Assembly (NCBI GenBank): GCA_963701095.1 | Contig: OY969564.1 | Location: 32,001 to 96,000, forward strand | Length of the DNA stretch: 64,000 nt | From: an uncultured Methanoregulaceae archaeon | GTDB lineage: Archaea > Halobacteriota > Methanomicrobia > Methanomicrobiales > Methanospirillaceae | Direction: 5' to 3' | Part shown: piece by piece, positions 9,347 to 32,889 of the stretch | Numbering within the stretch: the first letter of the stretch is position 1 | Layout of the letters: each line of letters starts with the position of its first letter | Notes under the pieces: model-generated | Database searches by the model: none | What the model saw: only the letters and a program-made list of their open reading frames with translations | Told to the model about the DNA's origin: nothing | Made by a program: the position numbers and the translations under genes

Positions 9347-10138
9347 TCACGCATTGAGAATTTTTAGCGCTTCCGTGACGCTCATATTCTGGTGCACGAT
9401 ACAGGCTGCCGCACGGACAAACTTGTCCGGTGTCCGGTGCTGGAAAGCATTCCGGCCAATCGAGATCCCGGCAGCTCCTCCCGCGATCGCGCCTTCAATC
9501 AGTTCAAGTGTTGTGCGGTCATCAGTCTTTGAACCTCCGGCAACAACAACTGGAACAGGGCAACCTCTGGTTACTTCGCGAAACGATTCCGGATCACCGG
9601 TATATACCGTTTTCACGATATCTGCCCCCAGCTCAGCTGCTACCCGGGCTGCGAGTTTAACCTGGTCGACATCATTTTCTTTTTTAATGTCCTTGCCTCG
9701 CGGGTACATCATTGCGAGCAATGGCATGCCCCATTCCATACATTCGATGGCGACATTTCCCAGATCCGAGAGCATCCGGGCTTCAGAATCTGCTCCGATA
9801 TTGACATGCATCGAGACCGCGTCAGCACCCATCCTGAGAGCGTTGGTTACAGAATTCACCAGCACTTTCTCGTTCGGATCCGGGGAGATCGAAGTACTTG
9901 CTGACAGATGCAGGATAAGCCCGATATCCCGGCCTCCCTGACGGTGACCGTAAAGGGCAAGGCCGACATGTCCTATAACGGCGTTCGCTCCACCGTCAGC
10001 AACGAGGTTAACTGCCTGCGACATATCAATAAGGCCCTGGATCGGGCCGTTTGTCACACCGTGATCCATCGGTACTATTACTGTTTTTTTCGTATTCCGG
10101 TTCATGATACGTTCCAGACGAATTTCTTTACCGCTCAT
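9347..10138 (-). CDS. 2-amino-3,7-dideoxy-D-threo-hept-6-ulosonate (ADH) synthase, paralog 1; first gene of the aro operon
   Basis: [47 protein letters not shown]-like site upstream of ATG 10138. Confidence 0.88.
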
Positions 10139-10146
10139 AACAACAA

Positions 10147-10194
10147 CAACTCCCCCTTCAGCCCTGAACAAGAGATCAGATATTGAAGGGAATT
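10147..10194 (-). promoter_or_regulatory. Predicted hairpin pairing the leader stop region with the SD of the first aro gene
   Basis: mRNA UAAUUCCCUUCA-AUAUCUGA-UCUCUUGU-UCAGGGC-UGAAGGGGGAGUU: CCCUUCA/UGAAGGG outer stem and UCUGA/UCAGG inner stem. Confidence 0.6.
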
Positions 10195-10264
10195 ACCGAT
10201 ACCAGGAATAAAACCTGAATCTAAAATAGCTAAAAAAACCGAAAACGCTAGAGCAAAGGCTCAT
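10193..10264 (-). CDS. Putative aromatic-rich leader peptide (23 aa, MSLCSSVFGFFSYFRFRFYSWYR)
   Basis: Read manually; 6 Phe, 3 Tyr, 1 Trp; stop 54 nt upstream of the aro operon start. Confidence 0.75.
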   Translation of the reverse strand: MSLCSSVFGFFSYFRFRFYSWYR

Positions 10265-10460
10265 AACGCATGTTTTTTCAGAAACGGGACTGATTATGCT
10301 CCGGACGGGTGCTGCGCTTTCAGAGATAAAGACATTCACGAGGGAAAAAACCCTCACGGGCGCTGGCGCACTCTTCCTGCATGATCATTTGTTTGGATTT
10401 GTGCCTATATAATTGTGTGTGCTAATGTGTAGCATGGCAGAAAAATATAACCTTATTCCA

Positions 10461-13139
10461 TTATTGTTTTCCGGTAAACCGGAATGATCCGGTCGGTACT
10501 GCCATCTCAAATCGTGCTCCTGCTCCGGGCTCTCCTGTTTCCCGGATCGTGATTCCGGTAAGGGAGAGGATTTCCCGGGCAAGGAAAAGACCGAGGCCGG
10601 TATTCTTCCCAAAACCACGATCGAATATCTTTTCCTTATACTCCTGGAGAACACCGACTCCGTCATCTTCACAGACAATAATCTCGTTTCCATTCTTCTC
10701 AGAAAGAGAGAACCGGATGGTGCTGATTTTTCCTCCATACCGGATCGCATTATCGACGAGATTGTAGATTACCTTGACAATTAACGGATCGGAAAAAACT
10801 TCTGCACCTGCGGGAATCTCGTTTTTTACCATGACATTTCCCAGCGACACCTGCCGTACTGCAGTTTCAGCAAGATTCCGTATGTCCTGCCATACAGGAT
10901 CTGTTTTCCGTACCGATTCGTATGCACTGGCAAACTGGATCATGGAGGAAATACGCGTGCTTACCTGAGAGATCCAGGTAAAATAATCCTCGACAGAAGG
11001 ATCCTTGACTTTTTCGTGAAGCAATTCAAGGAAACCATTCAATGCAAGAAGCTGGTTATTGATATCATGTCTGGTCACATGGGTGAGAAGAGCAAGGCTC
11101 CTATTAGCCTGCTGGAGCGCTTCTTCTGATCTACGGGATTCGGTTACGTCGCGGATAGCGCCGATTAATATTTCTTGTCCCTGGAAAGACATGACGTTTA
11201 CGGTAATTTCGACCGGGAAGACACTGCCGTCTTTTCTCTTATGATACCTGTCCCGTATAAATTTCGTCCTCTCTGCGATCGCGGAACGTGTAGCATCCGA
11301 CTCAGCGGAAAGGGCAGTTATAGGTAGTCCACGTAAGTCGTCAGTCAAATACCCATGCATGACTGCCAATGCATCGTTACAATCAATAATTTTCCCGGTT
11401 TTCTGGTCTATCAATGCAATACCGTCGGATTCAGCGGCAAATATACCCCTGAATTTCGCCTCACTTTCCATGAGAGCAGCTTCGATGCGTTTACGTTCCG
11501 TGATATCTGAACCGATGCTGAAGAGGCCGGTAAACTCACCGTTCTCATCAAACAGCGGTTTGTTGTACCACCGGATCCAGACACGCCTTCCGTAATGTGT
11601 TATATTCTCATTTTCATTGACAACGTAATTTTCAGGACGGCGGATAATATCCTCAATCATGTGAGCGAGACCCTTGTCCGATCCTGATTCACTGGCAGGA
11701 ACGATCGTTTCCATGACCGATCGTCCAATGATCTCATCACTGGAATAACCGAAGAACTCCAGGGCATATTCATTTGCGAAGGTAATTATGCCCGATTTAT
11801 CCCATTTTACGATTATACTGTTTGCGTTTTCGATCAATTCACGGTATTTTTCCTCGCTCTCCCGCAGCAATATTTCGGCCTGCTTCCTTCGGGTAATATC
11901 ACGGAGAATGACAAGTCCTGCGGGTTTACCCTGGTACCGGTAGGGTGCAATGGATGATTCGACGTTGATGGGGGTACCGTCAATTTTAAGGTATACTGAC
12001 TCACTAATGCCGCCAGGTTTCCCCTCTTTCATAACGTTCACTGCACGTTTGCGGATCTCTTCGTGATAAGAAGGATGGATCCGGTCGTAGAGTGATGTGT
12101 TCACAAGCTGATCTACAGATGTAGCACCCATGAGCCGGACCATCGCCGGATTAACATAGGCAAATGAATCACCGACAATAATATAAATGGCGTCAGGTGC
12201 CGCTTCGACAAGCTGTTGAAAATTCTCCTCGGTTTCCCGGATCAGGTTCTCTGTTCGTCCGAGCTCATCAAACTGGCTGCGCAGCTCTTCTTCGGAAGCA
12301 GCAATCTGCTCGTATGCGGCTCTCAGTTCAGTTTCAGCCCGTTTTTGTTCAGTTATGTCACGGATGGATTCAATTGCGCCTAAAATTTTTCCTTTATCAT
12401 CGAGAAGAAGGCTAGCTTTTGCCCAAAGATTGACATTTGTTCCATCAGGCCTCACAAAAGAGGTCTCCGCCATCAGCACCCTTCCACCGTGTATCGTATA
12501 GGTATAGTGTTCTTTCTCGAATACGGCATTCGGATCAAGGATGAGGTCAGCAAGCATCGGCCGGCGTTTTTGATATATTGTTAAAGCATGTTCGTAGTTA
12601 TTTTTTCCAAGAATTTCTGAAGGTCTGACCCCGGTCATTTCTTCCATCGCACGGTTCCACACAATAACCTTTCTCGATTTGTCAAGGACAAAGGTGGGGT
12701 CCGGCAGGAAATTGATGATATCGGTTTCACGGCGTTCATGTTCACGCAGCTGCGTCTCTGCCCATCTTTTCTGGACAGCGTGGCGGAGTTTGAATGCAAG
12801 CTCGGTAAACTGGGAAACGGGCTCGCCACCTTTCTGGAGATAGAAATCGGCACCTTCATTGAGTGCCTGAATGACGATCTCTTCCCTTCCTCTTCCGGTA
12901 AAAAGGATAAAGGGAATCGTTTTTCCTGAACTACGGACTTTTTTCAGGAATTCAATTCCATCAATCTCAGGCATCTGGTAATCGGAAACGATAGCGTCAT
13001 AGTTTTTTGTTGCCATCAGCACCAGTGCATCCCGTGCTGAGCTAATGATATCAACAGAAAACTGACCGCCCCGCTCAAGAAAAAGTTTTCCGATTTCAAG
13101 CATGGCCGATTCATCATCGACGTAGAGGATGGAAATCAT
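10461..13139 (-). CDS. Hybrid REC - multi-PAS - histidine kinase
   Basis: ILYVDD..SDYQMP..FTGRG receiver; about four PAS/PAC repeats; RHDINNQL H-box, NLVDNA, DDGVG, GLGLF. Confidence 0.92.
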   Translation of the reverse strand: MISILYVDDESAMLEIGKLFLERGGQFSVDIISSARDALVLMATKNYDAIVSDYQMPEIDGIEFLKKVRSSGKTIPFILFTGRGREEIVIQALNEGADFYLQKGGEPVSQFTELAFKLRHAVQKRWAETQLREHERRETDIINFLPDPTFVLDKSRKVIVWNRAMEEMTGVRPSEILGKNNYEHALTIYQKRRPMLADLILDPNAVFEKEHYTYTIHGGRVLMAETSFVRPDGTNVNLWAKASLLLDDKGKILGAIESIRDITEQKRAETELRAAYEQIAASEEELRSQFDELGRTENLIRETEENFQQLVEAAPDAIYIIVGDSFAYVNPAMVRLMGATSVDQLVNTSLYDRIHPSYHEEIRKRAVNVMKEGKPGGISESVYLKIDGTPINVESSIAPYRYQGKPAGLVILRDITRRKQAEILLRESEEKYRELIENANSIIVKWDKSGIITFANEYALEFFGYSSDEIIGRSVMETIVPASESGSDKGLAHMIEDIIRRPENYVVNENENITHYGRRVWIRWYNKPLFDENGEFTGLFSIGSDITERKRIEAALMESEAKFRGIFAAESDGIALIDQKTGKIIDCNDALAVMHGYLTDDLRGLPITALSAESDATRSAIAERTKFIRDRYHKRKDGSVFPVEITVNVMSFQGQEILIGAIRDVTESRRSEEALQQANRSLALLTHVTRHDINNQLLALNGFLELLHEKVKDPSVEDYFTWISQVSTRISSMIQFASAYESVRKTDPVWQDIRNLAETAVRQVSLGNVMVKNEIPAGAEVFSDPLIVKVIYNLVDNAIRYGGKISTIRFSLSEKNGNEIIVCEDDGVGVLQEYKEKIFDRGFGKNTGLGLFLAREILSLTGITIRETGEPGAGARFEMAVPTGSFRFTGKQ

Positions 13140-13309
13140 ATCTGTCCAGGGTCCGGCGCGATTACCATTATAAATCTTGTTTATCAGGTGAAAACACTTG
13201 GTATTTCCATTTTAAGACAGAACATGATAACAGTTACCCAAGCAAAAGGGATACCAAAAAGGACGGGGATGAAAAAAATCATATCCCTGTTACCCAAAAA
13301 AATCAGGTG

Positions 13310-13822
13310 TTATTTTTTGGATTTCTTGATGATGGTAAGATCTCCGAGCGTCTGGGTAATCTTTGCCTGGGTCTTTTTCTCCGCATCCGCTGAAACAACA
13401 TCGATAAGCTTGATGCCAAGGACTTTTTCAAGTTTTTTCCTGACTTCCTCTTCAGGGATAAGCTCTCCTTTCTCGATCTTTTTAATAAGCAGTTCCCGTA
13501 CCATCATGTGGAGGGCAAGATCTTTCATGGACAGGCCTTTTTCCATTCGTGCCTTCTTTACCCGGTCGGCATAATCCTCAACAATCTCACCTTCCATGAA
13601 ATCGAACATATCTCGTTTCCGTTGTGCGGGCATTGTTATCGCTGCCGGAGCCCTCGCGTTCTGCGCAGGCCGGCCAGCCGTCCGCTGTATATCTGTTCGC
13701 CGGACTTGTTGCACTTCGGTACCAAACTTTCCGCACCGGCTGCAGACCTGCAACTCCGCGCCTTCCACGCGGATCAATTTCGGGATGCCGCGAATTGATT
13801 CTCCACACATTTCGCACTGCAT
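13310..13822 (-). CDS. Archaeal multiprotein bridging factor aMBF1
   Basis: MQCEMCG..VEGAEL.VC..C Zn ribbon, HTH, C-terminal TLGD. Confidence 0.9.
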
Positions 13823-13877
13823 AATCTCACAAACACTTTATATGACGATTTCCCTATATAACTACTTGAGGAACGTG

Positions 13878-15188
13878 ATGGGCGATATTCTCCGTGAAAC
13901 TGCGGAACAGCAGACTCCAGAGGAACTGTGCCGGCTGTATAGAACCCTCACTGAACAGCTGCGTGACCAGCTTCAGAGGATCGAGACCGACAAACAGGAT
14001 CTCGAAACCCATTTGCTGGAACGGGTGACTAATCTTGAATCACGCAACCTGGAGCTCCGCGAGCAGATCCGGCAGAGTGAAGCGGACCGGCGGTATATCG
14101 AGACCCAGAAGATCCGGTTCGAACGGGAAGTTAGAAAACTCAAAAGCGAAAGTGAGCAGCTCAGAAGCCCGCCGCTTATTATCGGAACCATAGTTGACGT
14201 AGTCGATACAACCCGGGTCATTGTAAGGAGTAGTGCCGGACCACGGTTTCTGGTGCGTAGCTCTCCCAGCATTAACCCTGAAGATTTAAAAGCCGGTGCA
14301 CGGTGCACACTTAACCAGCAGTCTCTTGCCATCGTGGAACTACTGCCAAGTTCTTTTGATGCACAGGTCTACGGCATGGAACTGGTGGATTCGCCGCAGG
14401 AAACGTATTCTGATATTGGTGGACTAAAAGATCAGATAAACGAGATTCGTGAGGCAGTAGAGCTTCCGCTTAAACGACCCGAACTCTTCACAAGGATAGG
14501 TATCGAACCTCCTAAAGGTGTCCTGCTTCACGGTCCGCCGGGAACGGGAAAAACTCTGCTTGCAAAAGCGGTTGCCCATGAGACAAATGCGCATTTTATG
14601 CGGGTTGTAGGAAGCGAACTGGTACAGAAATATATAGGTGAAGGAGCCCGCCTTGTTCGTGAGCTATTTGACCTGGCAAAAAAGAAGTCGCCAACCATTA
14701 TATTCATCGATGAGATTGATGCAGTGGGCGCCTCACGTACAGAAGCAAATACTTCGGGTGACCGCGAAGTACAGCGGACTCTCATGCAACTTCTCGCGGG
14801 CATGGACGGCTTTGAGAACCGGGGCGACGTAAAGATCATAGCGGCAACCAACAGGATCGATATTCTAGATAAGGCACTTCTTAGGCCAGGAAGGTTCGAT
14901 AGGATCATCGAGATCCCGTTACCTGATGAAGAAGGCCGGCTTTCCATCCTTAAAGTTCACAGCCGGACCCTCACGATAGACGAGACGGTCAATCTTTCCG
15001 AAGTTGCCAGCCTGACCGAAGGAAAAAATGGTGCTGATCTCCGTGCGGTTTGCATGGAAGCCGGTATGTACGCTATCAGGAATGAGCGTGCCGCGATCAC
15101 CCGCGAAGATTTCCTTCAGGCAATCGAAAAAGTCCGCCTCGATTTCAACAGTACCCTTCACGATGTTGAAGGACGGATGTTTGCATAA
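13878..15188 (+). CDS. pan: Proteasome-activating nucleotidase, paralog 1
   Basis: Coiled coil and OB domain (LRSPPL), [25 protein letters not shown]-terminal MFA. Confidence 0.93.
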
Positions 15189-15243
15189 TTTTTTCTTAGC
15201 CGGATAAATAGTCTTAAATTGTCCGGCATTTTTTTTGCGGATC

Positions 15244-16080
15244 TTAAAAATGGATTAAAAGTTCACAAAAAGGGGGTTGAAAATTACATTTCGGGTGCGG
15301 GGAAACCTGGTGCTGTTCTCCCAGCTCGTATATGAGAGTGAAATACCGAGCTACGAAGATCGTAAAGAACGGGTTTACTACAAGGATAAAAATCCAGCCG
15401 ATATAAGGAATGAAAGCAATTACCATAACGACGACAAAATAGATAGCAGCAGCCACGGCAAAAAGAACCAGTGCAATGATATAATTCCCCCATCCGATCG
15501 TCCGAATCTGGGTGAGGATCTGGGAAAAATTGATTCCCTCGCTGATGCTGTTTGTCCGGGCAAACCGGATCACACCGAGAATTCCAAATAGTAGGGCAAT
15601 TATGATAAGGATTGATCCCGCTATCAGGAGAAGAGACAAGAGTAGGAGAAAAGACAGGTTAGACCCAGAAGTATCAGTAAAAGAAACCAAGAATTCTGCA
15701 CTTGTCAAGACGGTAATTACAATACCCGGCATAAACCAGAGAATCCATACAATATCGAGCTTGATACCATCAATAAAGAGATTTGTCCACCCGGTGAAGT
15801 CAGGAGCCGGTTTTACACCCCGGTATATCCGGACAATATAACCTGTGATGAAGAACGATAAAAGTAAACCAACCCCACACAGGATCGCGATCTGACTCCA
15901 GGGTATGGCACTCCAGTTGATACCTCCTGTACTGGCAACAAATGTTTTGGGATTGATGACGAACCGGATAAGAGATGCCGGGAGGGCAAATACAATGAAG
16001 ATAGCCCAACGCAGCCATTTTCCCATAAGAGCTTCCAGCGAATATGTCACTGAGTCTGTAAGTACTGCCGAAAAATCCAT
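15244..16080 (-). CDS. DUF4013-like membrane protein
   Basis: GYIVRIYRG...PDF..W..LFIDGIK, GVIRFART, IGWGNYI motifs. Confidence 0.75.
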   Translation of the reverse strand: MDFSAVLTDSVTYSLEALMGKWLRWAIFIVFALPASLIRFVINPKTFVASTGGINWSAIPWSQIAILCGVGLLLSFFITGYIVRIYRGVKPAPDFTGWTNLFIDGIKLDIVWILWFMPGIVITVLTSAEFLVSFTDTSGSNLSFLLLLSLLLIAGSILIIIALLFGILGVIRFARTNSISEGINFSQILTQIRTIGWGNYIIALVLFAVAAAIYFVVVMVIAFIPYIGWIFILVVNPFFTIFVARYFTLIYELGEQHQVSPHPKCNFQPPFCELLIHF

Positions 16081-16283
16081 TGAAATCTTTGGATTGTTTT
16101 AAAATTTCGATATATAAACCGTCCGTATTTCATCTTCGGTTGTTTAGACGATCCAGAAAATAATTTTTTCATTAGAACATATCCAGACCTTGTTGAGTAC
16201 GTCTTTCCCTCTTTCTATAACCGCGATCTTTTTCTCGTCATACGTAGACTTTTACGGAGTTATTATCCGCTAAGTGAGGGAAT

Positions 16284-16955
16284 ATGAGCGATCCAGAACC
16301 TAAAGATGAAATCACTTTGAACAGTGCCGATCCTGTTGATGAGACCGCAACTGTGCCGGAGCCTTCGGGAGATAAAGAAAAGACACCTGCAGAACCGAAC
16401 GATGTAAAAAAAGAAAAAGGGGGCCAGAATAGACAAAAAATGCTCCTTATTGCTGCCGGTATTGTTATAATTATCGCCCTTGTGGCGATAGGCGCCTATG
16501 TCCTCTCTCTCCCTCCTGTCGCTACAAACGGGGATACGGTATTTGTGTATTATAACGAATCTTTTGAAAATGGGACGATAATTTCTACAAATATGAATAC
16601 CACGGATCCCCTTGTGTTTACCCTTGGTAATTCCAGCTACATCGCCGGTTTTCAGGATGCTGTAATCGGAATGTCAGAAAACGAAGTGAAAACCGTTGAT
16701 ATTCCGTTCACGAAGGCCTATGGGGCGTACGATCCCGGGCTTATCCAGATGATAAACCGTACTGGGCCGATTGCAAATAAAACCTTTATTCCCGGTCATT
16801 ATTACACGGTATACTACAAACCGGCAAACTCTTACAGCCTTGTAAAAGTGCTCAATGTCACGCCGACAACCATAACCTGGGATGCAAACAACCCACTTGT
16901 CGGGTATAACCTTACGTACACCATAAAACTTGCTAATGTCCTAAAGCCGTCATAG
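16284..16955 (+). CDS. Membrane-anchored FKBP-type (SlyD-like) peptidyl-prolyl isomerase
   Basis: Single TM helix, then GDTV.V.Y, PL.FTLG...I.GF..A..GM, AYG.YD, DANNPLVG..L.Y.IK. Confidence 0.8.
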   Translation: MSDPEPKDEITLNSADPVDETATVPEPSGDKEKTPAEPNDVKKEKGGQNRQKMLLIAAGIVIIIALVAIGAYVLSLPPVATNGDTVFVYYNESFENGTIISTNMNTTDPLVFTLGNSSYIAGFQDAVIGMSENEVKTVDIPFTKAYGAYDPGLIQMINRTGPIANKTFIPGHYYTVYYKPANSYSLVKVLNVTPTTITWDANNPLVGYNLTYTIKLANVLKPS

Positions 16956-19187: not shown

Positions 19188-19195
19188 GAAACCCG

Positions 19196-25876: not shown

Positions 25877-28585
25877 ATGTGTTGTAATCGATTTAGTCTT
25901 GATTGTGCAGGATTTTTGATTATTGCGTTGCTGTTTGTTGGCTCCGTAAATGCGATGACAGCGAATTTTAATGGGGCGCCCAGAAGCGGAACTGAGCCAT
26001 TACCAGTAAGTTTCACGGATGATTCAACGGGCGGGCCAACCGGTTGGGCATGGTATTTCGGTGATGAAAACTGGCAGACCATCGGTTCAAACTGGACGGA
26101 AATGACCGCCAGCCCCGGATGGAATGATAGTTACTATAGTGCGGCGACATCATTACCTGATGGAAGCATTGTGATGCTAGGAGGGTTTGATAATGTACTG
26201 GACGTGACTCTAAACGATACATGGCGTTCAACGGATGAAGGCGCTACGTGGACTCTTGTAAACCCGAGTTCAGGCTGGCTTCCCCGATATGCATTTCCCG
26301 CCGTTACATTACCTGATGGTAGTATCGTGATAATGGGCGGCGTAGGTAACTATTCTGCCGGGACTTTTCTGAACGACACGTGGCGGTCAACGGATGAAGG
26401 CGCTACGTGGACGGAGATGAACGCGAGTTCAGGCTGGTCACCCCGGGAATATGCCGCTGCAGTAGCGTTACCTGACGGCAATATCACTATCCTCGGGGGG
26501 TCAGCTAATGGCGTGTATTTAGGCGATGTGTGGCAGTCGACGGATAAAGGTGCCACATGGACGAAAATAAATGCTTCCGCTTTTGGTGGTACGGGTCTGA
26601 GTGCTCCTGCTGCTGTTGCTCTCCAAGATGGCAATATTGTCGTAATGGGTGGATACTCAGGCGGTCATGGCAGAACTAGTAAAACGTACCGGTCAACGGA
26701 TGAAGGTAAAACATGGACAATAGTTAATGGAAGTGGCGGTTGGCAAGGTCGAGACCGGTTCCCCGCAGTTCCATTACCTGACGGGAGTATAGTGTTCGCC
26801 AGTGGCTATTCTGGCGCCGCAGCCCTCAATGATACCTGGAGGTCGGCGAACGAAGGCGCTACGTGGACTGAACTCAACGTGTCAGCTCCGTGGCAGGCGC
26901 GAAATGGTGCCGATATGGTTTCTTTACCGGATGGAAGTGTCGTGATATTATCCGGACAGATTGCTACAAATGTAGGTTTTGATGACGTTTGGCGGATGCA
27001 GACCGCATCAGCATTTGGTGAGAATCCGGTTCACATTTATACAACTCCAAGTAATAGTTTTAATGTCACACTCAATGCGTATATTTTGGGTAATATCCTT
27101 GACGAGAACAGCACAACAAAGTTTTTCTTTATCAATCCGGTATCATACCCCGGTTTCACGTCCGTCATTCCCAGTCGCGGATCAGTCAGTATTCCAAACA
27201 CGGTTCTGATTCAGGGTGGGGGGTTCAACTCAACCGGCACAACCCAGGTGATCCTGAGCAGGAGCGAGGGGCCCTCTAGTATAACGCTGAGTACTCCGGC
27301 TAACGTTTCGGTGCTCTCCAATTCCCTGATCCGTGCCACGATTCCTTCGGGCATCGCAACGGGTTTATGGAATGTCAGCGTGATATCACCGCTCGGCTAC
27401 CCTGCGGATAATGCGAGTGTTACGTATATGGCGGCAATAAGTCTGACGGGAATCAACGCGATCAATGGTACACCACAGGTCGGGAGTACGCTCAAGAACG
27501 GTACGGTCGCCCCATCGGGATCAACGGCGATATTCCAGTGGACAGAATCTTCGTCAATTAATGGACCCTACACGAACATTAGTGGAGCGACATTGGGGAC
27601 ATACGTCCTGCAACCCAGTGATCTCGGGATGTATGTTGAGGTCAACGCGACGGGAACCGGGCTCTATATCGAGACGGTCAACAGCACACCGGTTGGCCCG
27701 GTCATCCCTCTGGCCCCGGTATCTTCGTTCACTGAGAACACAACTTCCGGAACCGTACCGTTAGCGGTCCAGTTCAACGATACGTCGTCAAACACTCCAA
27801 CCTCATGGTATTGGGTATTTGGTGACGGATCGACATCAACGGTCCAGAATGCGACACATACCTTCAGTACCTCCGGGACGTATCAGATCAACCTGACAGC
27901 CAGTAACGCCGGTGGATCGAATACATCATCTAACCAGACAATTACGGTCGATGGTCCGGCCCCGGTATCTTCGTTCACTGAGAACACAACTTCCGGAACT
28001 GTACCGTTAGCGGTCCAGTTCAACGATACGTCGTCAAATACTCCAACCTCATGGTATTGGGTATTTGGTGACGGATCGACATCAACGGTCCAGAATGCGA
28101 CATATACCTTCAGTACCTCCGGGACGTATCAGATCAACCTGACAGCCAGTAACGCCGGTGGATCGAACACATCATCCAACCAGACGATTACGGTAACCCA
28201 GTCCGGTCCAACGACAACAATTACTCAATCTTCTGGCGGTAGACCCTCGTATGGCGGTGATGGCGGGAGTAACTCACCAGCTGGAAATACCGGGCCGCAA
28301 AACCCCAATCCTGCTGGTAACACCCAAAACCAAAATACCGGTTCAGGGACCTCCAATACTGGCAATGGTAGAGGAACAGAACAGCTCGGGCCTCTTGAAC
28401 CGGCTGGCGGCCCTGCCACTGTAGTAAACCCGTCGTCTCCCCAGCTCCAGAATCCGATCATAATCACCATTGCCAATGCTCTGCTGACGCTTAAGGAAAA
28501 TCAGTTCTTACTAATCACCGGTGTCGTCGGCATTATCAGTGTTGCAGTCCTGCGAAGATGGTGGATCCGGCGCCAGCAACCTTAA
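25877..28585 (+). CDS. Cell-surface protein: signal peptide, Kelch/Asp-box propeller within a PKD domain, IPT-like domain, two PKD domains, G/N/P-rich linker, C-terminal TM helix
   Basis: Repeated LPDGSIV..GG and W.STD.G.TW motifs; W.FGD PKD motifs; start moved to the ATG preceding the signal peptide. Confidence 0.85.
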   Translation: MCCNRFSLDCAGFLIIALLFVGSVNAMTANFNGAPRSGTEPLPVSFTDDSTGGPTGWAWYFGDENWQTIGSNWTEMTASPGWNDSYYSAATSLPDGSIVMLGGFDNVLDVTLNDTWRSTDEGATWTLVNPSSGWLPRYAFPAVTLPDGSIVIMGGVGNYSAGTFLNDTWRSTDEGATWTEMNASSGWSPREYAAAVALPDGNITILGGSANGVYLGDVWQSTDKGATWTKINASAFGGTGLSAPAAVALQDGNIVVMGGYSGGHGRTSKTYRSTDEGKTWTIVNGSGGWQGRDRFPAVPLPDGSIVFASGYSGAAALNDTWRSANEGATWTELNVSAPWQARNGADMVSLPDGSVVILSGQIATNVGFDDVWRMQTASAFGENPVHIYTTPSNSFNVTLNAYILGNILDENSTTKFFFINPVSYPGFTSVIPSRGSVSIPNTVLIQGGGFNSTGTTQVILSRSEGPSSITLSTPANVSVLSNSLIRATIPSGIATGLWNVSVISPLGYPADNASVTYMAAISLTGINAINGTPQVGSTLKNGTVAPSGSTAIFQWTESSSINGPYTNISGATLGTYVLQPSDLGMYVEVNATGTGLYIETVNSTPVGPVIPLAPVSSFTENTTSGTVPLAVQFNDTSSNTPTSWYWVFGDGSTSTVQNATHTFSTSGTYQINLTASNAGGSNTSSNQTITVDGPAPVSSFTENTTSGTVPLAVQFNDTSSNTPTSWYWVFGDGSTSTVQNATYTFSTSGTYQINLTASNAGGSNTSSNQTITVTQSGPTTTITQSSGGRPSYGGDGGSNSPAGNTGPQNPNPAGNTQNQNTGSGTSNTGNGRGTEQLGPLEPAGGPATVVNPSSPQLQNPIIITIANALLTLKENQFLLITGVVGIISVAVLRRWWIRRQQP
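27712..28194 (+). repeat. Tandem duplication of a PKD domain, 246-bp period
   Basis: 27712-27948 vs 27958-28194: 6 differences in 237 bp by manual comparison. Confidence 0.95.
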
Positions 28586-28848
28586 TGGTTTCAGGAATTC
28601 AACGAATCTTTTCTAGGGAATATCCCATTATTTTTAAAAATTCCGGAGATCTTGCCCCTACACGATACTCCCCTACCGGGGTTTTATTACGAGATCTAAA
28701 TTTATTAGCCTTTCAGCGACGGTCGTCGTTAACAAAAAGCAAAAACAGGGTAACAAACACCATCATTTTTCCTGTCCCGAACAGACCGGTCCTTGCCGGT
28801 ACACAAAAGGCTTCATTACCGGAGCAGCCAAGTATATCGGTAAATATC

Positions 28849-29502
28849 ATGACTGATAATACATACGGTGCAAAACTCCAGCGGGACGGCAAGACCTACG
28901 CGATTCAGACCCGGATCCCGGCCGGTGTCGTATCGCCGGATGACCTGGAAACCCTTGCACGAGTAGCAAAAAAATACGCAATACCCCTTGTCAAGATTAC
29001 CTCCGGCCAACGATTCCTACTTGTTGGTGTACTGGAGAAGGATATCGTCAATGTCAGAAAAGATCTCGGACCGCTCGGAACGGCATCTATCACACCAGGT
29101 GTACGTTATGTCCAGTCCTGCCCGGGCATTTCGTTCTGTAAAAACGGTACACAGGATTCCATCAGTATTGCAAAGGAGATTTCCGATGAGTATGCCGGAA
29201 AAGAGTTCCCGGCAAAGATTAAGATTGGCATCTCCGGCTGCCCGCGATGCTGCGGCGAAAGCCGGGTCCGGGATATCGGTATTATGGGATCCGCGAAAGG
29301 CTGGACGGTCTCTTTTGGTGGGCACAGCGGGTTTAAATCGCGGATGGGGGAGCAGGTCGCCACTGGACTGTCCTCGGAAGAGGCAAAGGACTGTGTCAGG
29401 AAACTACTAACGTTCTATAAAACACATGCCGAGCCAAAAGAGCGTACCTCCCGGTTCCTTGAACGGACGGGAAATGAATGGATAAAAAAAATAATTGATT
29501 AA
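28849..29502 (+). CDS. Small nitrite/sulfite-reductase-domain protein
   Basis: RIPAG, KITSGQR, CPG...C and KIGISGCPRCC 4Fe-4S/siroheme ligands, DIG, ER..R. Confidence 0.82.
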   Translation: MTDNTYGAKLQRDGKTYAIQTRIPAGVVSPDDLETLARVAKKYAIPLVKITSGQRFLLVGVLEKDIVNVRKDLGPLGTASITPGVRYVQSCPGISFCKNGTQDSISIAKEISDEYAGKEFPAKIKIGISGCPRCCGESRVRDIGIMGSAKGWTVSFGGHSGFKSRMGEQVATGLSSEEAKDCVRKLLTFYKTHAEPKERTSRFLERTGNEWIKKIID

Positions 29503-29530
29503 AAAATTTCCTTTAATTATTGACGTAAGA

Positions 29531-30202
29531 TCATCCATTAAAATTATGGTGCCGGTAGCAGTTTTCGATAAACTCCTGTTTCCGGTGCTCGCTTGCGTTT
29601 ACCGGTGGTTTCAAGTATCCGACAGAAGGAGTCTGCTTTGCCGGGCAAAACGGGCAGAGAGCGGCATCAACATCGTTAGCCTTCTCTTTTACCGGGCAGT
29701 AATAGACACCGTCAATACACTCAACGAAATCTCCTCCGGGAAACCGGAGACCTGCCGGATGTCCTGGTTCCTGCCGGACGATCATGCAGAATCCGGCAAG
29801 TAAGAATTTTAAAAACCGGAGCCTGATGTCTCCGGGTCCGACCCGGCACTGTTCGCATACTATTGCCCAGTATCTCTTCTCTCCATCGGTCACCGGCTCG
29901 TTCATCCGCGCAAATGCACCTGATTGGTCCATGAGCCGGATTGCCTGGTATGTCCCAAGTAAGTGACCGGCAATCGCCGTTTCGAGTTCTTTACGGTACC
30001 CTGGTGAAAGATCCCGGATTGATAATCCAAAATTTTGTTCCATTTTCCGGATGTCACGGGGCTGAAATTGCAGCACAATCCGCGCAAGGAATGCACCAAT
30101 TTCGCCCCGGGTATGGAATGTTTTGAGCATGGTGCAGTCTTTCTGGATGGCGGAAACGATCTGTTCCGGCGGGACATCCTCTGCGTTATAAGGGGTTTCC
30201 AT
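29531..30202 (-). CDS. DUF2115 (UPF0305) methanogen protein
   Basis: PGHPAG..FPGG, YYCPVK, ALCPFCPAKQ motifs. Confidence 0.8.
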   Translation of the reverse strand: METPYNAEDVPPEQIVSAIQKDCTMLKTFHTRGEIGAFLARIVLQFQPRDIRKMEQNFGLSIRDLSPGYRKELETAIAGHLLGTYQAIRLMDQSGAFARMNEPVTDGEKRYWAIVCEQCRVGPGDIRLRFLKFLLAGFCMIVRQEPGHPAGLRFPGGDFVECIDGVYYCPVKEKANDVDAALCPFCPAKQTPSVGYLKPPVNASEHRKQEFIENCYRHHNFNG

Positions 30203-30409
30203 TGCTGCACCGATTTTTTTGATCATTGTAATATAAACAGATAACGAAAGGTATCTTTTTTGGTAGAAAATTCTCGACAATACTGTTTTTTGGGTCCGGC
30301 ATAAATGAAGTGCGAATACTCAAAGTAGAGCGTATTTTCGGGTTACTGATAAACGGCTGGTTATTGTTTCTTCCTCACATTCATCTACTTGGAACCCCAA
30401 TAGATCAGG

Positions 30410-30946
30410 ATGGATTCTTTTTTTATCCGATCCGAAATTCCTGAGGATATACCCGCAATTTATGAGGTCAATCTTCAGGCTTTCGGCCAGGATGGTGAAG
30501 CCCGGCTCGTCAGCGCTCTCCGTCATGATGGTGACTATATCCGCGGGCTCTCTCTGGTTGCAGTGCATAAAGACAAAATAATCGGGCATATTCTCTTTGT
30601 CCCGGTATCCATTGAATCGGGCGACATCCACGTACCGGCTGTCGCTCTTGCACCACTTTCGGTATGTTCGGATTACCAGTGTCAGGGTGTTGGATCAAGC
30701 CTTATAAAAGAAGGTCTGCGGGTGTGCCGGCAGCTGGGGCACCGGATTGTGATCGTAGTTGGGCATCCCACATATTACCCCCGGTTCGGGTTCACACCAG
30801 CGTCTATATCGGGGATTAAATCTCCGTTTCCCTGTAAAGATAACGTATTCATGGCATGTCCCCTTGTTCCCGGGGCTCTTGACGGGATCCATGGTACCGT
30901 ACAATATCCCCCGGCGTTCGACACAGAAGGGGCACACGCCGGATAA
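30410..30946 (+). CDS. GNAT N-acetyltransferase (YhbS-like)
   Basis: LSLVA...IIGHILF, LAPLSV..YQ.QGVG, VVGHPTYYPRFGF motifs. Confidence 0.88.
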   Translation: MDSFFIRSEIPEDIPAIYEVNLQAFGQDGEARLVSALRHDGDYIRGLSLVAVHKDKIIGHILFVPVSIESGDIHVPAVALAPLSVCSDYQCQGVGSSLIKEGLRVCRQLGHRIVIVVGHPTYYPRFGFTPASISGIKSPFPCKDNVFMACPLVPGALDGIHGTVQYPPAFDTEGAHAG

Positions 30947-31241
30947 AATCTTGTCTTTTCTCATTCTGCCCCTTTCGGTTTACTATATCTGTAAAAAGTC
31001 CTGACTGGCTTCAAGGCGACCTTCACATCAGGTTTATGAACGGACCGGGATATCAACGAGTCTTTGTTTTTCCAAAACTCCACTTTTTCATGCGACCCTT
31101 TTTTCCTCAGAATCATACCACATTCAGAAAGGATCGCATACCCTCCCTTTTTCCTTTATTTGTGATTTTGATATTGCTGATAAACATGGCACCATTCTGG
31201 TGCAGGAAAAATATTTGTCCTTGAGCGATCAAAGTCCATGC

Positions 31242-31334
31242 ATGGCAAAACCAAGCGGTTTTTGTTTGTGCGAAATATCTGATATTCATCTCCCCTATTT
31301 TATTATTCAAATTATTGTAAGTATTCGGGCGTAA
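31242..31334 (+). CDS. Putative Ile-rich leader peptide (30 aa, MAKPSGFCLCEISDIHLPYFIIQIIVSIRA)
   Basis: Read manually; 7 Ile, 2 Leu, 1 Val with an IIQIIVSI cluster; GAAAAATATTTG BRE/TATA-like box about 28 nt upstream. Confidence 0.7.
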   Translation: MAKPSGFCLCEISDIHLPYFIIQIIVSIRA

Positions 31335-31367
31335 TTCAGCGTCCGATTCAACTTCAGGATGTGTGAA
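31335..31367 (+). promoter_or_regulatory. Predicted hairpin directly after the leader stop, covering the cimA SD-like site
   Basis: TTCAGCGTCC (31335-31344) pairs with GGATGTGTGAA (31357-31367) using two G-U pairs and one bulge; ATG at 31372. Confidence 0.55.
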
Positions 31368-31371
31368 AAAT

Positions 31372-32889
31372 ATGGATTTAGATAAAACCTGTTCATTTCC
31401 GAATAATCTGTTCGCAAGGAAATTGCGCTTTTTTGATACCACGCTACGGGACGGGGAACAGACCCCGGGGGTATCGTTGAACCCGGACCAGAAATTGGAG
31501 ATTGCAACCAGATTGGCAGCGGTAGGTGTCGATGTCATTGAGGCCGGCTCAGCGGCGGCATCAGCCGGGGAACAGGATGCGATCCGGCTCATCTCCGGTG
31601 CGGGGCTCCCGGTAGAAACGTGCACATTTGTCCGGGCAGTCCGATCCGATATCGATTATGCCGCTGACAACGGTGCCGATTCAGTCCATTTGGTAATACC
31701 GGTTAGCGACCTTCACATCGAAAAGAAGATGCGAAAAACCCGCGATCAGGTTGCAGAGATGGCCTGGAACTCGGTCGAGTACGCAAAAAGCCGGGGACTT
31801 ATTGTAGAACTTTCGGGAGAAGATGCTTCCCGGGCGGACCAGCAGTTCCTGTCCGCCGTTTTTTCCGGGGGAGTAGAGCGCGGTGCCGACCGGCTTTGTT
31901 TCTGTGACACGGTGGGTCTCCTGACGCCAGAGAAGATTGCGGAAATTATCCCGCCGCTTGCCGGCATCGCTCCGCTTTCGATCCACTGCCACGATGACCT
32001 CGGTTTTGCGCTTGCAAACACCGTTGCTGCGTTAAAATCTGGTGCAGGTTGTGCCCACTCAACAGTGAACGGTCTTGGCGAACGTGCCGGCAATACACCC
32101 TTCGAGGAACTCGTGCTCTCTCTTGAGGTACTCTACGGATACCAGACCGGGATAAAAAAAGAAGAGATATATGCCCTTTCCACGCTGGTATCCCGGCTAA
32201 CCGGTGTCCCGCTACCGGTGAATAAAGCCGTTGTGGGTGAGATGGCGTTTACCCACGAAAGCGGTATCCACGCGCACGGCGTGATCCGGGAACCGGCTAC
32301 CTATGAGTCAATACGGCCGGAACAGGTGGGAAGGCGGCGCCGGATCGTTCTTGGGAAACATTCTGGTTCGGCCTCGGTTGAAGCTGCACTGCACGAGATG
32401 AAGTACGCGCCAAACGATCAGCAGCTTAGAGCCATTGTTTCCCGGATAAAAGATTTGGGCGATTCGGGAAAACGTGTCAGCGATGCCGATCTCATGGCGG
32501 TTGCCGATTCAGTCCTTGCCATGGAATGCAGGCCCACCATCAAGCTGCGGCAGTTTACTGTCGTTTCCGGGAGTAACATGATACCCACGGCATCGGTCAC
32601 GCTCGAAGTAAAAGGAAAAGAGATGACCGGTGCTGCAACAGGAGACGGGCCCGTCGATGCTGCGATGCAGGTACTGGCGCAATCGGTCGCCGATGTAGGG
32701 AACATACGACTCGAAGAATATCATGTTGACGCGATCAGCGGTGGAACGGATGCATTGGTTGAAGTGACTGTAATGTTAAGTAAAGACGGGAAGATAATTA
32801 CTTCACGGGGCGCGCGCACGGATATAATCATGGCGAGCGTTGAGGCGATGATCGCCGGAATGAATAGACTACTTGAGGAACGAACATGA
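31372..32889 (+). CDS. cimA: (R)-citramalate synthase (LeuA/CimA family)
   Basis: [27 protein letters not shown], regulatory domain GDGPVDA; CimA rather than LeuA is inferred from linkage to ilvBN and the Ile-rich leader. Confidence 0.75.

Follow-up and report, generated by a model that had tools for sequence, protein, structure and literature searches.

The classical bacterial leader-peptide transcription attenuators include trpL, pheL, hisL and ilvL/ivbL. In the drug-inducible ermC, cat and cmlA leaders, a stalled ribosome melts or remodels a hairpin that hides a downstream SD. Programmed +1 frameshifting is known at hungry or slow A-site codons, as at CUU-UGA in prfB and CUU-AGG in Ty1; in E. 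coli the prfB site, CUU UGA, is accompanied by an upstream SD. Mycobacteria have polycysteine leaderless short ORFs, the 'Cys ribulon', for which translational attenuation has been shown (Canestrari et al., bioRxiv 10.1101/834739). Our literature search found no amino-acid-sensing leader peptide in archaea. Here we examine two short ORFs that precede amino-acid operons in a 64,000-nt window of the genome of an uncultured Methanoregulaceae archaeon, one rich in aromatic residues before the aro operon and one rich in Ile before leuA/cimA-ilvBN (Table 1). We judge it somewhat more probable than the alternatives taken together that both are ribosome-sensing leader ORFs on the mRNA of amino-acid operons, the aro leader acting by translational attenuation.

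Table 1. Features of the two leaders and their operons in the window
Feature	Coordinates	Strand	Description
TATA-like box TTATATA	10406..10412	-	putative aro leader promoter, read in the sequence
Frame-B ORF	10320..10382	-	overlaps leader 5' end; MQEECASAREGFFPRECLYL, then stop
Aromatic leader ORF (frame A)	10193..10357	-	54 codons from candidate GTG start at 10357; MRVFSLVNVFISESAAPVRSIISPVSEKTCVMSLCSSVFGFFSYFRFRFYSWYR, then stop
Conserved 5' element of aro leader	10328..10357	-	two repeats 18 nt apart, GTGAGGGTTTTT and GTGAATGTCTTT
Small hairpin GAGC-CTTT-GCTC	10251..10262	-	directly 5' of the aromatic run; gives the LC dipeptide
Aromatic tail	10196..10243	-	last 16 codons, 10 of them Phe/Tyr/Trp
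aro stop hairpin	10144..10198	-	starts from last codon and stop; 3' strand holds GGGGGAG (10150-10156) and GTTGTTG spacer
aro operon	2315..10138	-	first gene ADH synthase, 9347-10138
TATA-like AAATATTT	31209..31216	+	33 nt before Ile leader start; putative promoter
Ile-rich leader ORF	31242..31334	+	MAKPSGFCLCEISDIHLPYFIIQIIVSIRA, then stop; Ile 7 of 29 residues after Met
8-bp hairpin UCGGGCGU/GCGUCCGA	31325..31346	+	encloses Ile leader stop codon
leuA/cimA-ilvBN	31372..35064	+	leuA/cimA-family synthase 31372-32889, ilvB 32886-34400, ilvN 34561-35064

The aromatic leader ORF and its conservation

The aro leader ends 54 nt upstream of the gene for ADH synthase, which catalyses the first step of aromatic synthesis in archaea, and lies on the same strand. 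The operon that follows comprises the common aromatic pathway with tyrA and pheA: a second ADH-synthase paralogue, DHQ synthase II, prephenate dehydrogenase, prephenate dehydratase, EPSP synthase, shikimate kinase/dehydrogenase and chorismate synthase are all encoded (NCBIfam TIGR01949, 352.6 bits with a cut-off of 299.45, and NF002627, 503 bits; Pfam PDH, PDT+ACT, EPSP_synthase, SKI+Shikimate_dh and Chorismate_synt). Metatranscriptome contigs from a relative with about 92% identity run without a break across leader and gene; as contigs they cannot prove a single transcript, and one of 5.8 kb also extends into the upstream gene.

The original prediction described the unit as a 23-codon ATG ORF (MSLCSSVFGFFSYFRFRFYSWYR, then stop) with 10 aromatic residues among the 22 after Met. 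Its ATG (10271-10269) lies within CATGC, a second ATG (10264-10262, minus strand) follows 7 nt downstream, CGG is the last codon and GTAATTC the stop context. The conserved unit proved instead to be the 54-codon frame; an in-frame ATG is present in only 9 of 66 orthologues. The features listed for this leader and the Ile leader are real in the sequence, with the exception of a hairpin-SD overlap in the latter. The shared architecture built on them was nevertheless not conserved: GTAATTC was found in 5, CGG as last or penultimate codon in 11, LC in 3 and CATGC in 2 of the 66 distinct aro leaders. Only the general layout matters.

By a strict criterion, loci were searched for an ORF whose last 16 codons include 7 or more aromatic residues and which ends no more than 130 nt from ADH synthase. 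One was present at 53 of the 66 loci from Methanomicrobiales and at 68 of the 73 named loci from Methanoregulaceae; nine further loci of the order had 6 aromatic residues in 16, or 9-11 in 16 but at 178-230 nt upstream. None of 29 leuA-upstream control loci had an ORF of this kind, and no aro leader was found upstream of ADH synthase at 23 outgroup loci from nine other families of the same phylum. The aro leader is conserved across the whole order Methanomicrobiales, where it is probably a regulatory device of ancient origin.

From the 5' element to the tail, the leader is one open frame in 57 of 58 order loci and 69 of 71 named loci. There are 21 distinct lengths, from 35 to 70 codons, over all of which the frame is kept, and this conservation, as read from the sequences, argues for translation of the ORF. 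The frame-A start codon is GTG (84) or ATG (27) in all 111 distinct leaders. A 12-mer from the 5' element was detected with up to two mismatches at 58 of 66 order loci, and its sole exact intergenic copy in this genome is in the aro leader. The N-terminal part, (M/V)xVFSPVNVFI, is conserved. In the tail, residue identity drifts while aromatic content stays, as in AAFYRFFWYF, YRYFNWFSQF and GFFFRYFYLF, each directly followed by the stop. Among 62 non-redundant tails, 60-95% of residues at codons -1 to -5 are aromatic, and beyond codon -20 the frequency is at most 13% at most positions. Codon use also differs, with TTT at 72% and TAT at 85% in the tails, as against TTC at 84% and TAC at 87% in ADH synthase genes. 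The ORF always stands before the aromatic operon.

Both leaders are, as first claimed, rich in the product of their own operon. The further claim that the enrichment exceeds what composition would give called for correction: among 12,726 small ORFs and 22 residue groups the aro leader had p = 4e-5, which is not significant genome-wide, and the Ile leader was not among the best 60 rows. It is context and conservation, and not composition, that make the case for a leader. Comparably aromatic-rich small ORFs occur elsewhere in this genome, before unrelated genes.

At the gathering threshold, Rfam gave nothing in the window except a tRNA elsewhere; in E-value mode the aro leader had one chance-level match on the opposite strand (16 bits, threshold 59.8) and the Ile leader had no match. 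A search of 5.8 billion clusters for proteins of near length (29-95 aa) sharing words with the aro ORF found none, which shows only that the ORF is not called as a gene. In our judgement the aro ORF is quite probably translated and under selection as a regulatory leader linked to aromatic supply.

The hairpin at the aro leader stop and a model for its action

In the aro leader, an SD-like GGGGGAG (10156-10150) lies 11 nt before the ADH synthase ATG at 10138, within the 3' strand of a hairpin with a minimum-energy fold of -17.9 kcal/mol (z = -2.05). The hairpin had been predicted to begin at the stop and to cover the SD with its 3' arm in both leaders; the cover of the SD stands for the aro leader only. 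In 53 of 63 leaders the hairpin begins no more than 12 nt from the stop, as against 197 of 600 control stop triplets. Its lower stem takes in the last leader codons, and in the short-spacer majority the SD is consistently in the 3' arm. At 10 of 66 order loci the stop is 105-321 nt from the gene, so the hairpin there cannot mask the SD (G004 and G020; L025, L027, L029, L092, L095 and L098 of family f4; L094 and L097 of genus g18 in family f6). No U run follows either hairpin, in agreement with the original prediction that a classic hairpin plus poly-U terminator is absent.

The arms of the aro hairpin vary by family yet stay complementary, for example CCCTTCA/TGAAGGG, TCCCGGAA/TTCCGGGA and CCTCCC/GGGAGG. 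Cognate arms paired at a mean of -14.75 kcal/mol, compared with -11.64 for arms exchanged with other genera; 15 of 51 cognate pairs ranked in the best 5% and 27 of 51 in the best fifth, several being poor, and this test gives only moderate support for the hairpin. In 45 Methanoregula sequences 84.9% of cells pair, as against 42-57% with the partner slid, and 9 of 25 pairs have changed on both sides; the structure was derived from folds of these same sequences and the test is therefore biased in its favour. None of 500 shuffles of these sequences matched the observed pairing, double-change cells or covariation score, with the caveat that related sequences can outdo shuffles without any structure. 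RNAalifold on MAFFT alignments predicted no pairs for 51 order-wide sequences and only 4 for the 45 Methanoregula sequences. With these qualifications the arms covary. The small hairpin 5' of the aromatic run was recovered by RNAalifold with 4 pairs in 13 Methanoregula sequences, 3 of them with changes on both sides in 3-4 sequences. Folding of the aro leader did not recover an alternative, mutually exclusive pairing scheme.

We infer that a ribosome-dependent mechanism acting at the level of translation, as had been suggested, is the best reading. The aro ORF closes with densely packed Phe, Tyr and Trp codons and the hairpin comes directly after it; in most lineages this pairs the last codons and the next 10-20 nt with the SD and the region before the AUG of ADH synthase. 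When charged aromatic tRNAs are scarce, a ribosome would dwell on the last leader codons, and its footprint and helicase would keep the hairpin open, allowing other ribosomes to initiate on ADH synthase and turning the operon on. When aromatic amino acids are plentiful, the leader ribosome would terminate and leave, the hairpin would re-form, and initiation would be low. The chances that the output is unmasking of the RBS by a stalled ribosome, with the operon on in starvation, seem to us evenly balanced, the direction being suggested by geometry only. Similar logic may apply to the Ile leader, in which pairing is possible between the region of the start codon and the first part of the Ile-codon run.

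The model was examined by placing a ribosome on the last 0-2 leader codons and computing SD accessibility. The simulated stall opened the SD in four of five non-Methanoregula genera (0.18 to 0.50, 0.25 to 0.61, 0.08 to 0.51 and 0.14 to 0.29); the fifth leader, L019, did not respond. In four Methanoregula leaders the SD barely changed (flat at 0.23 and 0.29, 0.17 to 0.11-0.20, and 0.30 to 0.39), and in a fifth, L011, accessibility rose from 0.24 to 0.40; the upper stem remained closed in Methanoregula. Stalls at the early aromatic codons, 10-20 before the stop, are too distant and would not open the hairpin.

The Ile-rich leader and other amino-acid loci

The Ile leader ends 37 nt from the leuA/cimA gene, on the same strand. 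Its first ATG, at 31238, is within CATGC and its second is at 31242 (plus strand); CGG is the penultimate codon and GTAATTC the stop context. A region GGTGCAGGAA.ATATTT is homologous to the leuA promoter region in relatives. The downstream genes match NF002085 (589.6 bits, cut-off 517), TIGR02090 (489.5, cut-off 484.75) and TIGR00118 (771 bits) in NCBIfam, and ACT_AHAS_ss and ALS_ss_C in Pfam.

The hairpin at the Ile leader stop has -14 kcal/mol in a 60-nt window (z = -1.75) and is extended to 9 bp in genomes G015 and G398. About 17-20 nt separate the end of its 3' arm from the SD-like GTGA (31363-31366), which the arm does not cover. The 88-nt leader fold has z = -2.74, none of 200 shuffles being as stable, and pairs CCUAUUUU.. 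with ..AAAAAUAUGG. Pairing of the start region with the head of the Ile run is seen in G000, G015 and G398; the minimum-energy fold of G256 differs and lacks it.

Homologues of the Ile leader were found in 4 of 108 Methanoregula genomes (5 copies) and at 2 of 30 order-wide leuA loci, and represent only two divergent lineages. The variants read MARQSGFCLCEIPDISLPSFIIQIIVSIRA and MAASHGSSYAE(F/L)PPSILVISIIVIIRA, each up to the stop; a second copy in G256, at a contig end and read by eye from the DNA, has the same YFIIQIIVSIRA tail before its stop. In the four genomes the 5' half has diverged while the ILV-rich tail and the hairpin at the stop persist. Whether the Ile leader is functional seems to us an even question, and there is weak support for regarding it as a recent, lineage-restricted device with the logic of the aro leader.

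A general archaeal system, as first proposed, is not supported: the aro leader was not found at the outgroup loci and the Ile leader is rare among congeners. The suggested scan of other amino-acid loci was likewise negative: no cognate-rich leader ORF was found at 12 of them in this genome (trpE, two hisG, hom, two leuC-type, three amino-acid kinase, ilvD, ilvC and a leuA paralogue), nor at trpE in 30 loci of the order.

Alternative readings and relation to known systems

The 5' end of the aro leader offers material for a different sensor, in which ribosomes would by default translate a frame-B peptide of 15-21 codons and stop. At two (C/U)UU-U sites before a Phe or Tyr codon, a hungry A site would let the P-site tRNA slip +1 into the long frame, taking ribosomes to the aromatic tail and hairpin and switching the operon on. 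The frame-B ATG is kept in all 58 distinct leaders, at the transcript start predicted from TATA distance, and the ORF is probably leaderless, given the TATA-like octamer 30-34 nt upstream in 54 of the 58; the bases flanking the aro TATA-like box are conserved within Methanoregula. Frame B has mostly 15 codons outside Methanoregula and 20-21 within, and its stop remains in place through changes among TAG, TAA and TGA that alter the long-frame residue. The long frame is frame B +1, and in 62 of 111 leaders its own start, GTG in most cases, is separated by only 4-7 nt from the predicted 5' end. All 91 frame-B ORFs contain two YTT-T sites, the first running into a Phe codon and the second into a Tyr codon (A-site codons TTC/TTT 91, TAT/TAC 91, TAG 1), and 123 of 183 sites are preceded, at 2-11 nt, by an SD-like GGTGA or GAGG. 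These features are not independent, however, because all follow from one conserved nucleotide block. A frame reached only by shifting would need no start of its own, yet a canonical one is present in all 111 leaders; codon-position variability is ambiguous (long-frame entropy sums 10.0, 12.9 and 15.0 for positions 1-3), and the transcript start is itself a prediction. We regard frameshift sensing as unlikely, and it is equally doubtful that the leader is a two-stage ribosomal sensor without precedent, in which two tandem +1 cassettes in a leaderless ORF, each with its SD-like stretch, would send ribosomes into the long frame when Phe or Tyr is short, and the aromatic tail, with its Trp codons, would then stall them on the masking hairpin. 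If true, hungry-codon frameshifting would be a conserved means of sensing amino acids throughout an order of archaea. According to a study of pheL, high frameshifting on a Phe-rich leader can be incidental (PMC3082878).

Control might instead be exerted on transcription, with uncoupling of ribosome and polymerase in a U-rich leader leading to early termination or RNA cutting by aCPSF1/FttA or at oligo-U runs from Phe codons, and a held ribosome giving protection. Oligo-T is an archaeal intrinsic termination signal, and T runs of at least 6 occur in 28 of 62 leader tails, but TTT codons generate such runs as a side effect. At the 10 long-spacer loci the hairpin lies far from the SD, some with short T runs and AT-rich spacers after it, and one metatranscriptome contig ends within the leader region at 10371, a weak hint. 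Most lineages, however, lack a T run after the hairpin, the following sequence being GTTGTTGTT, GATTGATTG or similar, and the consistent place of the SD in the 3' arm of the short-spacer majority also speaks against this explanation, which we consider improbable. It is very unlikely that the ORFs are translated with no amino-acid sensing at all, either just coupling translation to the first gene by opening the hairpin or, for the aro ORF, encoding a small aromatic-rich protein with a function of its own, and that the Ile ORF is a chance product of an AT-rich insert. Upstream ORFs commonly couple translation by unmasking, and the conserved aro N-terminus, the equally aromatic-rich ORFs before unrelated genes, the few genomes with the Ile leader and its weak Ile content would all fit. 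Against this, the aromatic codons abut the stop, their content persists as residues drift, the ORF never leaves the aromatic operon, the protein search was empty within the limit given above, and the ILV tail of the Ile leader outlives heavy divergence elsewhere.

Translational attenuation, the reading we prefer for the aro leader, can be set beside the systems named at the start. The prfB and Ty1 sites bear only on the frameshift alternative: the (C/U)UU-U slip motif, the slow A-site codon and the SD-like stretch are similar, whereas here the A-site codons are Phe and Tyr sense codons, the sites are two in tandem, an ordinary +1-frame start is present and the shift is hypothetical. Like the classical attenuators, the leaders have a cognate-codon run near the end of a short ORF, RNA structure from the stop, and residue content that is kept where sequence is not; the match of leader to operon is also alike, aromatic for the aromatic operon and branched-chain for ilvBN. 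Unlike them, they lack the 1:2, 2:3 and 3:4 alternatives and the hairpin plus U run, the output here is most likely translation initiation, and archaeal polymerase and termination factors differ. The proposed unmasking of the SD by a leader-stalled ribosome resembles that of erm, cat and cmlA, with a shortage at aromatic codons, through uncharged tRNA, in place of drug and arrest peptide as the stall signal. Compared with the Cys ribulon, the aro leader is archaeal, would sense three amino acids with one leader and is predicted from sequence; at 45-65 codons its ORF is far longer, its N-terminal part is conserved and a second ORF overlaps it, and in Methanoregula the long ORF is away from the predicted 5' end. 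The two share a product-rich short ORF at or near the 5' end of the operon mRNA and the lack of a terminator, and control by the aro leader would likewise be translational.

The two leaders and their genomic setting

The source genome is a single contig of 2.63 Mb with 48% G+C. ADH synthase, which catalyses the first step of the archaeal aromatic amino-acid pathway, heads one of the two operons studied (Table), and the aromatic-rich leader upstream of it is termed here the aro leader, or leader 1. The Ile-rich leader, or leader 2, precedes a leuA/cimA synthase gene that NCBIfam assigns to a joint archaeal family. Split or truncated genes are common in this genome: there is a TGA within the ADH-synthase paralogue (window positions 8731 to 9354), trpE, leuC and ilvC are each in at least two pieces, ilvB (32886 to 34400) covers just 477 of 557 profile positions, the chorismate synthase gene (2315 to 3085) is another such locus, and genome completeness is 86% despite the single contig. 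The split genes look like assembly indel errors, and the frames of small ORFs in this genome should therefore be read cautiously.

Coordinates of the leaders, their reading frames and the associated genes (window positions)
Feature	Position	Strand	Remarks
ADH synthase	ATG at 10138	-	TIGR01949, 352.6 bits against a cut-off of 299.45
Genes after ADH synthase		-	second ADH-synthase paralogue, DHQ synthase II, prephenate dehydrogenase, prephenate dehydratase
Further genes of the aro operon		-	EPSP synthase, shikimate kinase/dehydrogenase, chorismate synthase
Leader 1, as originally predicted	ATG at 10271 within CATGC; second ATG at 10264	-	MSLCSSVFGFFSYFRFRFYSWYR, then stop; end CGG-TAA-TTC
Long aro frame	10193-10357	-	54 codons, GTG start
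Frame-B ORF	10320-10382	-	MQEECASAREGFFPRECLYL, then stop
Leader 2	ATG at 31238 within CATGC; second ATG at 31242	+	MAKPSGFCLCEISDIHLPYFIIQIIVSIRA, then stop; end CGG-GCG-TAA-TTC
Isopropylmalate/citramalate-synthase family gene	ATG at 31372	+	followed by acetolactate synthase large and small subunits

The original prediction had described a leader architecture shared by both operons, and on reading the sequence all the features that it listed were found in place in both leaders; folding and sequence likewise agree with its statement that neither leader has a classic hairpin plus poly-U terminator. The claim that the 3' arm of a hairpin at the stop covers the SD of the first gene holds for leader 1, where the hairpin begins at the last codon and takes in GGGGGAG, the SD-like sequence of ADH synthase (-17.9 kcal/mol, z = -2.05). 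In leader 2 the stop codon is enclosed by an 8-bp hairpin, and about 17-20 nt separate the end of this hairpin from the SD-like GTGA; the claim is therefore wrong for this leader. As elements of a conserved architecture, the shared details are scarce: among 66 aro orthologues GTAATTC was found in 5, CGG in 11, LC in 3 and CATGC in 2, and the LC of leader 1 arises from a small covarying hairpin, GAGC-CTTT-GCTC. The conserved aro ORF is also longer than the one first proposed, an in-frame ATG at that start being present in only 9 of the 66 orthologues.

Enrichment of each leader in the product of its own pathway, the other main element of the prediction, was upheld in that the cognate residues are present in both, but composition alone is not decisive. 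In a scan of this genome that took in 12,726 small ORFs lying 5' of called genes, the Phe+Trp+Tyr content of the aro leader has p = 4e-5, with comparable ORFs existing elsewhere, and the Ile leader does not rank within the best 60. Annotation of the genes downstream of 20 other top-ranked enriched ORFs gave no amino-acid gene; these genes encode ThiC, radical-SAM proteins, BacA, a helicase, kinases and unnamed proteins. The proposed check for a general attenuation-like system, a search of other amino-acid loci of this genome, was run and speaks against it: no cognate-rich ORF was found upstream of trpE, at two hisG operons, or at hom, two leuC-type genes, three amino-acid kinases, ilvD, ilvC or the leuA paralogue. 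Nor was a Trp-rich leader found at 30 trpE loci across the order, for which gene starts were called roughly. Beside the trpE start in this genome (genome positions about 1518990 to 1519020) lies a palindrome-like TGTATAAATATGTACA, with no leader ORF, which may be a protein operator and is reminiscent of TrpY-type TGTACA boxes.

Distribution and reading frames of the aro leader

Loci were scored by the number of aromatic residues in the last 16 codons of the best ORF upstream of ADH synthase, the strict criterion being at least 7 of 16 and a stop no more than 130 nt from the gene. Such ORFs were found at 53 of 66 Methanomicrobiales loci from six families and at 68 of 73 named Methanoregulaceae loci (55 not identical to the earlier loci), and at none of 29 control regions upstream of leuA. 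The recurrence in relatives expected by the original prediction is thus order-wide, without a counterpart at any of 23 outgroup loci from nine other families of the same phylum, a result that means not found within 500 nt upstream, since in those organisms other genes may precede ADH synthase in its operon. Among the 13 remaining loci of the order, six have 6 of 16 aromatic residues, three reach 9-11 of 16 at a distance of 178-230 nt upstream, and four are weak (L087, L093, L094 and L097). Contigs with a leader and a Methanoregula-type ADH synthase (82-90% identity) also occur in Spirochaetia and Bacteroidales bins (L161 and L208); these labels are probably due to binning contamination in public MAGs.

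The content of the aro leader peptide is kept while its sequence drifts, as illustrated by the tails AAFYRFFWYF, YRYFNWFSQF, GFFFRYFYLF and FGFWYRF, each directly followed by the stop. In 62 non-redundant tails the share of aromatic residues is 60-95% at the last five positions, 26-77% at -6 to -16, and at most 13% at most positions beyond -20. The tails use TTT (72%) and TAT (85%), as against TTC (84%) and TAC (87%) in the ADH synthase genes of 30 loci. This preference is compatible with slow, wobble-read codons and also with AT-rich intergenic DNA.

A 12-base element, GTGAATGT(C/T)TTT, usually occurs as two copies 18 nt apart, 35-70 codons upstream of the leader stop. It shares one open frame with the aromatic tail in 57 of the 58 order loci that have it, at 21 distinct distances, and in 69 of 71 named loci; the exceptions are one genome with a degenerate-looking leader (L093) and two assemblies with suspected indel errors. 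Because indels between element and tail are always of whole codons, with no stop between, these comparisons argue for translation of the whole long frame. The 54-aa peptide is absent among the called proteins, a search of proteins near this length giving no candidate. When GTGAATGTCTTT was used to search this genome for a regulon, 18 matches with at most one mismatch were found, compared with about 12 expected by chance on our own estimate; most lie within genes and none precedes an aromatic gene. Around the midpoint of the leader, at about 10290-10310 (alignment columns 178-196), there is a conserved C-rich sequence, CACCCG(C/T)CCG..GCAT, followed by GTTTCTGAA. The C-rich stretch pairs with the SD region in full-length folds; both partners are invariant, so that covariation cannot test their pairing. 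Among public RNA runs, only six wetland metatranscriptomes contain 7-8% of the sampled words, the matches being contigs of a relative that carry no start, end, strand or level.

Upstream of the element, all 58 distinct leaders have an ATG whose frame runs one base ahead of the long ORF; it opens a short overlapping ORF, here called frame B. In 54 of the 58, this ATG is preceded by a TATA-like octamer whose first base lies 30-34 nt away; given the position of archaeal TATA boxes, such a spacing is what a transcription start on the ATG or directly beside it would give. Frame B is mostly 15 codons long outside Methanoregula (resembling MRGECFFAGECFYLR, then stop) and 20-21 codons within that genus. 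The position of its stop is fixed while the codon varies among TAG, TAA and TGA, and the switches change the long-frame residue. Retention of the stop position despite these changes suggests that frame B is itself translated.

The overlap of the two frames admits another reading, hungry-codon frameshifting, by which a ribosome on frame B would enter the long frame through a +1 slip. Each of the 91 distinct frame-B ORFs has a pair of (C/T)TT-T sites, with a Phe codon after the first and a Tyr codon after the second; a slip at either site lands in the long frame, and an SD-like stretch lies 2-11 nt upstream of 123 of 183 sites. However, these features all come from one conserved block, and an ordinary start codon for the long frame is available in 111 of 111 leaders (GTG in 84, ATG in 27), the distance of this codon from the predicted 5' end being 4-7 nt in 62 leaders and 25 nt in 49 of Methanoregula type. 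Codon-position variability, measured as entropy, is ambiguous between the two overlapping frames, and a report on E. coli pheL indicates that frameshifting on such leaders can be incidental (PMC3082878). Entry into the long frame by slippage thus appears improbable to us.

The terminal hairpin and the proposed working of the aro leader

A stem of at least 6 bp and -8 kcal/mol or lower, starting no more than 12 nt from the stop in a 60-nt window, was found at 53 of 63 distinct leaders, compared with 197 of 600 stop triplets taken at random from control regions; the ten misses are mostly long hairpins that exceed the window. In the majority of leaders, which have a short spacer of 33-80 nt, the G-rich SD is within the 3' arm, and the arms vary by family yet stay complementary. 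When each 5' arm was paired with the 3' arms of other genera, the cognate mean was -14.75 kcal/mol against -11.64 kcal/mol for non-cognate arms, the cognate arm being among the best 5% in 15 of 51 cases and the best 20% in 27. No Rfam family was found at either leader.

In Methanoregula the structure put to the test has two tiers: the last codons (UGG UAU stop) pair with GUUGUU..ACUA just 5' of the AUG in the lower stem, and CCCUCUGG.. pairs with ..CAGGGGG in the upper. RNAalifold on MAFFT alignments predicted no pairs for 51 order-wide stop-to-start regions and 4 pairs for 45 Methanoregula regions; for the full Methanoregula leader (13 sequences) it gave small 5' hairpins only and missed the terminal hairpin. 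Since few pairs were recovered in this way, the structure obtained from single-sequence folds was tested instead. In the 45 Methanoregula sequences 84.9% of cells were paired, compared with 42-57% when the partner was slid by 1-3 columns, double-sided changes were seen in 9 of 25 pairs, and none of 500 shuffles equalled the observed pairing, double-change cells or covariation score, values that carry a bias in that the structure was derived from folds of the same sequences and the relatives are not independent.

At 10 of the 66 loci (genomes G004 and G020, six of family f4 and two of f6/g18) the leader stop is 105-321 nt from the gene, and the hairpin therefore cannot hold the SD. A Methanoregula sub-group (L003 and L004, the loci of G004 and G020, with L160 and L161) has a 60-80-nt insert between the hairpin and ADH synthase, rich in GTTGATTG repeats and with its own SD, AAAGGAG, which places the hairpin off the ribosome-binding site. 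In family f4 (L025, L027, L029, L092, L095 and L098) a strong long hairpin with up to 15 perfect pairs follows the leader, and after it comes a 100-230-nt AT-rich spacer in which TATA-like sequences precede the ADH synthase ATG by about 26-33 nt. The spacer may hold an independent promoter of a leaderless gene; alternatively, the layout may be a terminator-type version of the device.

The aro leader combines a conserved, probably translated ORF, aromatic codons against its stop and a conserved hairpin starting there, which in most lineages contains the SD and the region preceding the AUG. In the working that we propose, the ribosome would be delayed on the last codons when charged tRNA for Phe, Tyr or Trp runs short, leaving the hairpin open and ADH synthase translated; prompt termination would allow the hairpin to close. 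The same logic has been shown by experiment for polycysteine leaderless short ORFs of mycobacteria (10.1101/834739). Stalling was simulated by constraint folding with the ribosome on the last 0-2 codons. Accessibility of the SD rose in four non-Methanoregula leaders (0.18 to 0.50, 0.25 to 0.61, 0.08 to 0.51 and 0.14 to 0.29) and barely shifted in most Methanoregula leaders, where only the lower stem was reached; the simulation lends the model partial support. Ribosomes starved at earlier aromatic codons would sit too far upstream of the hairpin, so that the direction of control, with starvation opening the hairpin for translation of ADH synthase, is a best guess that we hold with half confidence.

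The Ile-rich leader and comparison with known systems

A DNA search found the Ile leader in 4 of 108 Methanoregula genomes (the present one, G256, G015 and G398), with two copies in G256, one of them at a contig end. Across the order, only the present genome and G015, of 30 leuA loci, have at least 5 Ile in the last 12 codons near the gene. The other 28 have a different conserved 5' element, the palindrome CATGGTG-N5-CCATG with a mini-ORF, MSECFIC and stop, overlapping the GTG start. In most Methanomicrobiales (L033-L060) a TATA-like box precedes this element, which reads CATGGTG-N5-CCATGAGTGA(A/G)TGTTTTATTTG; the mini-ORF has 7-8 codons and the gene starts at the overlapped GTG. The window's counterpart of this place lies at about 31230-31245, and in the four genomes the Ile leader has supplanted the element. 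A further sequence, GGTGCAG(G/T)AA, precedes an AT-rich box in the window (31200-31210), at the leuA paralogue (genome position about 2316380) and at leuA in relatives, and may serve branched-chain genes as a common BRE or regulator site.

There are two Ile-leader lineages, whose 5' halves diverge heavily while the tail (YFIIQIIVSIRA versus SILVISIIVIIRA, each before the stop) and the stop hairpin are kept. In an 88-nt fold from the present genome the head of the Ile run (CCUAUUUU..) pairs with the start region (..AAAAAUAUGG; z = -2.74, none of 200 shuffles as good). The corresponding regions pair in G015 and G398 and are unpaired in the minimum-energy fold of G256; with only two lineages the comparison is without statistical power. 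We give the Ile leader about an even chance of being functional. It is young, and its presence in so few congeners indicates how fast a device of this kind can appear.

For bacteria, the control of amino-acid operons by leader peptides is described in textbooks; it needs ribosomes that read the mRNA during its synthesis. In the full-text literature outside subscription journals we found no report of an archaeal amino-acid-sensing leader peptide; passages of the Methanosarcina and Haloferax ribosome-profiling papers treat upstream ORFs in general terms only. The aro leader would offer an order-wide, testable archaeal case for ribosome-mediated sensing of tRNA charging. It bears on how the archaeal pathway to aromatic amino acids, by way of ADH synthase, is regulated and on the regulatory use of small, unannotated ORFs, and frame B, at the predicted transcript start, raises the question of how leaderless mRNAs choose their reading frame.

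As proposed, the aro leader would work like bacterial leader peptides and, judged from its sequence, would represent bacterial-type logic in another domain of life. A classical transcription attenuator has a terminator and alternative hairpins, whereas the aro leader has neither and so does not qualify as one. It differs from known leader peptides in being unusually long, in responding, as predicted, to three amino acids at once and in its overlap with a predicted leaderless ORF; the closest known systems are translational attenuators.
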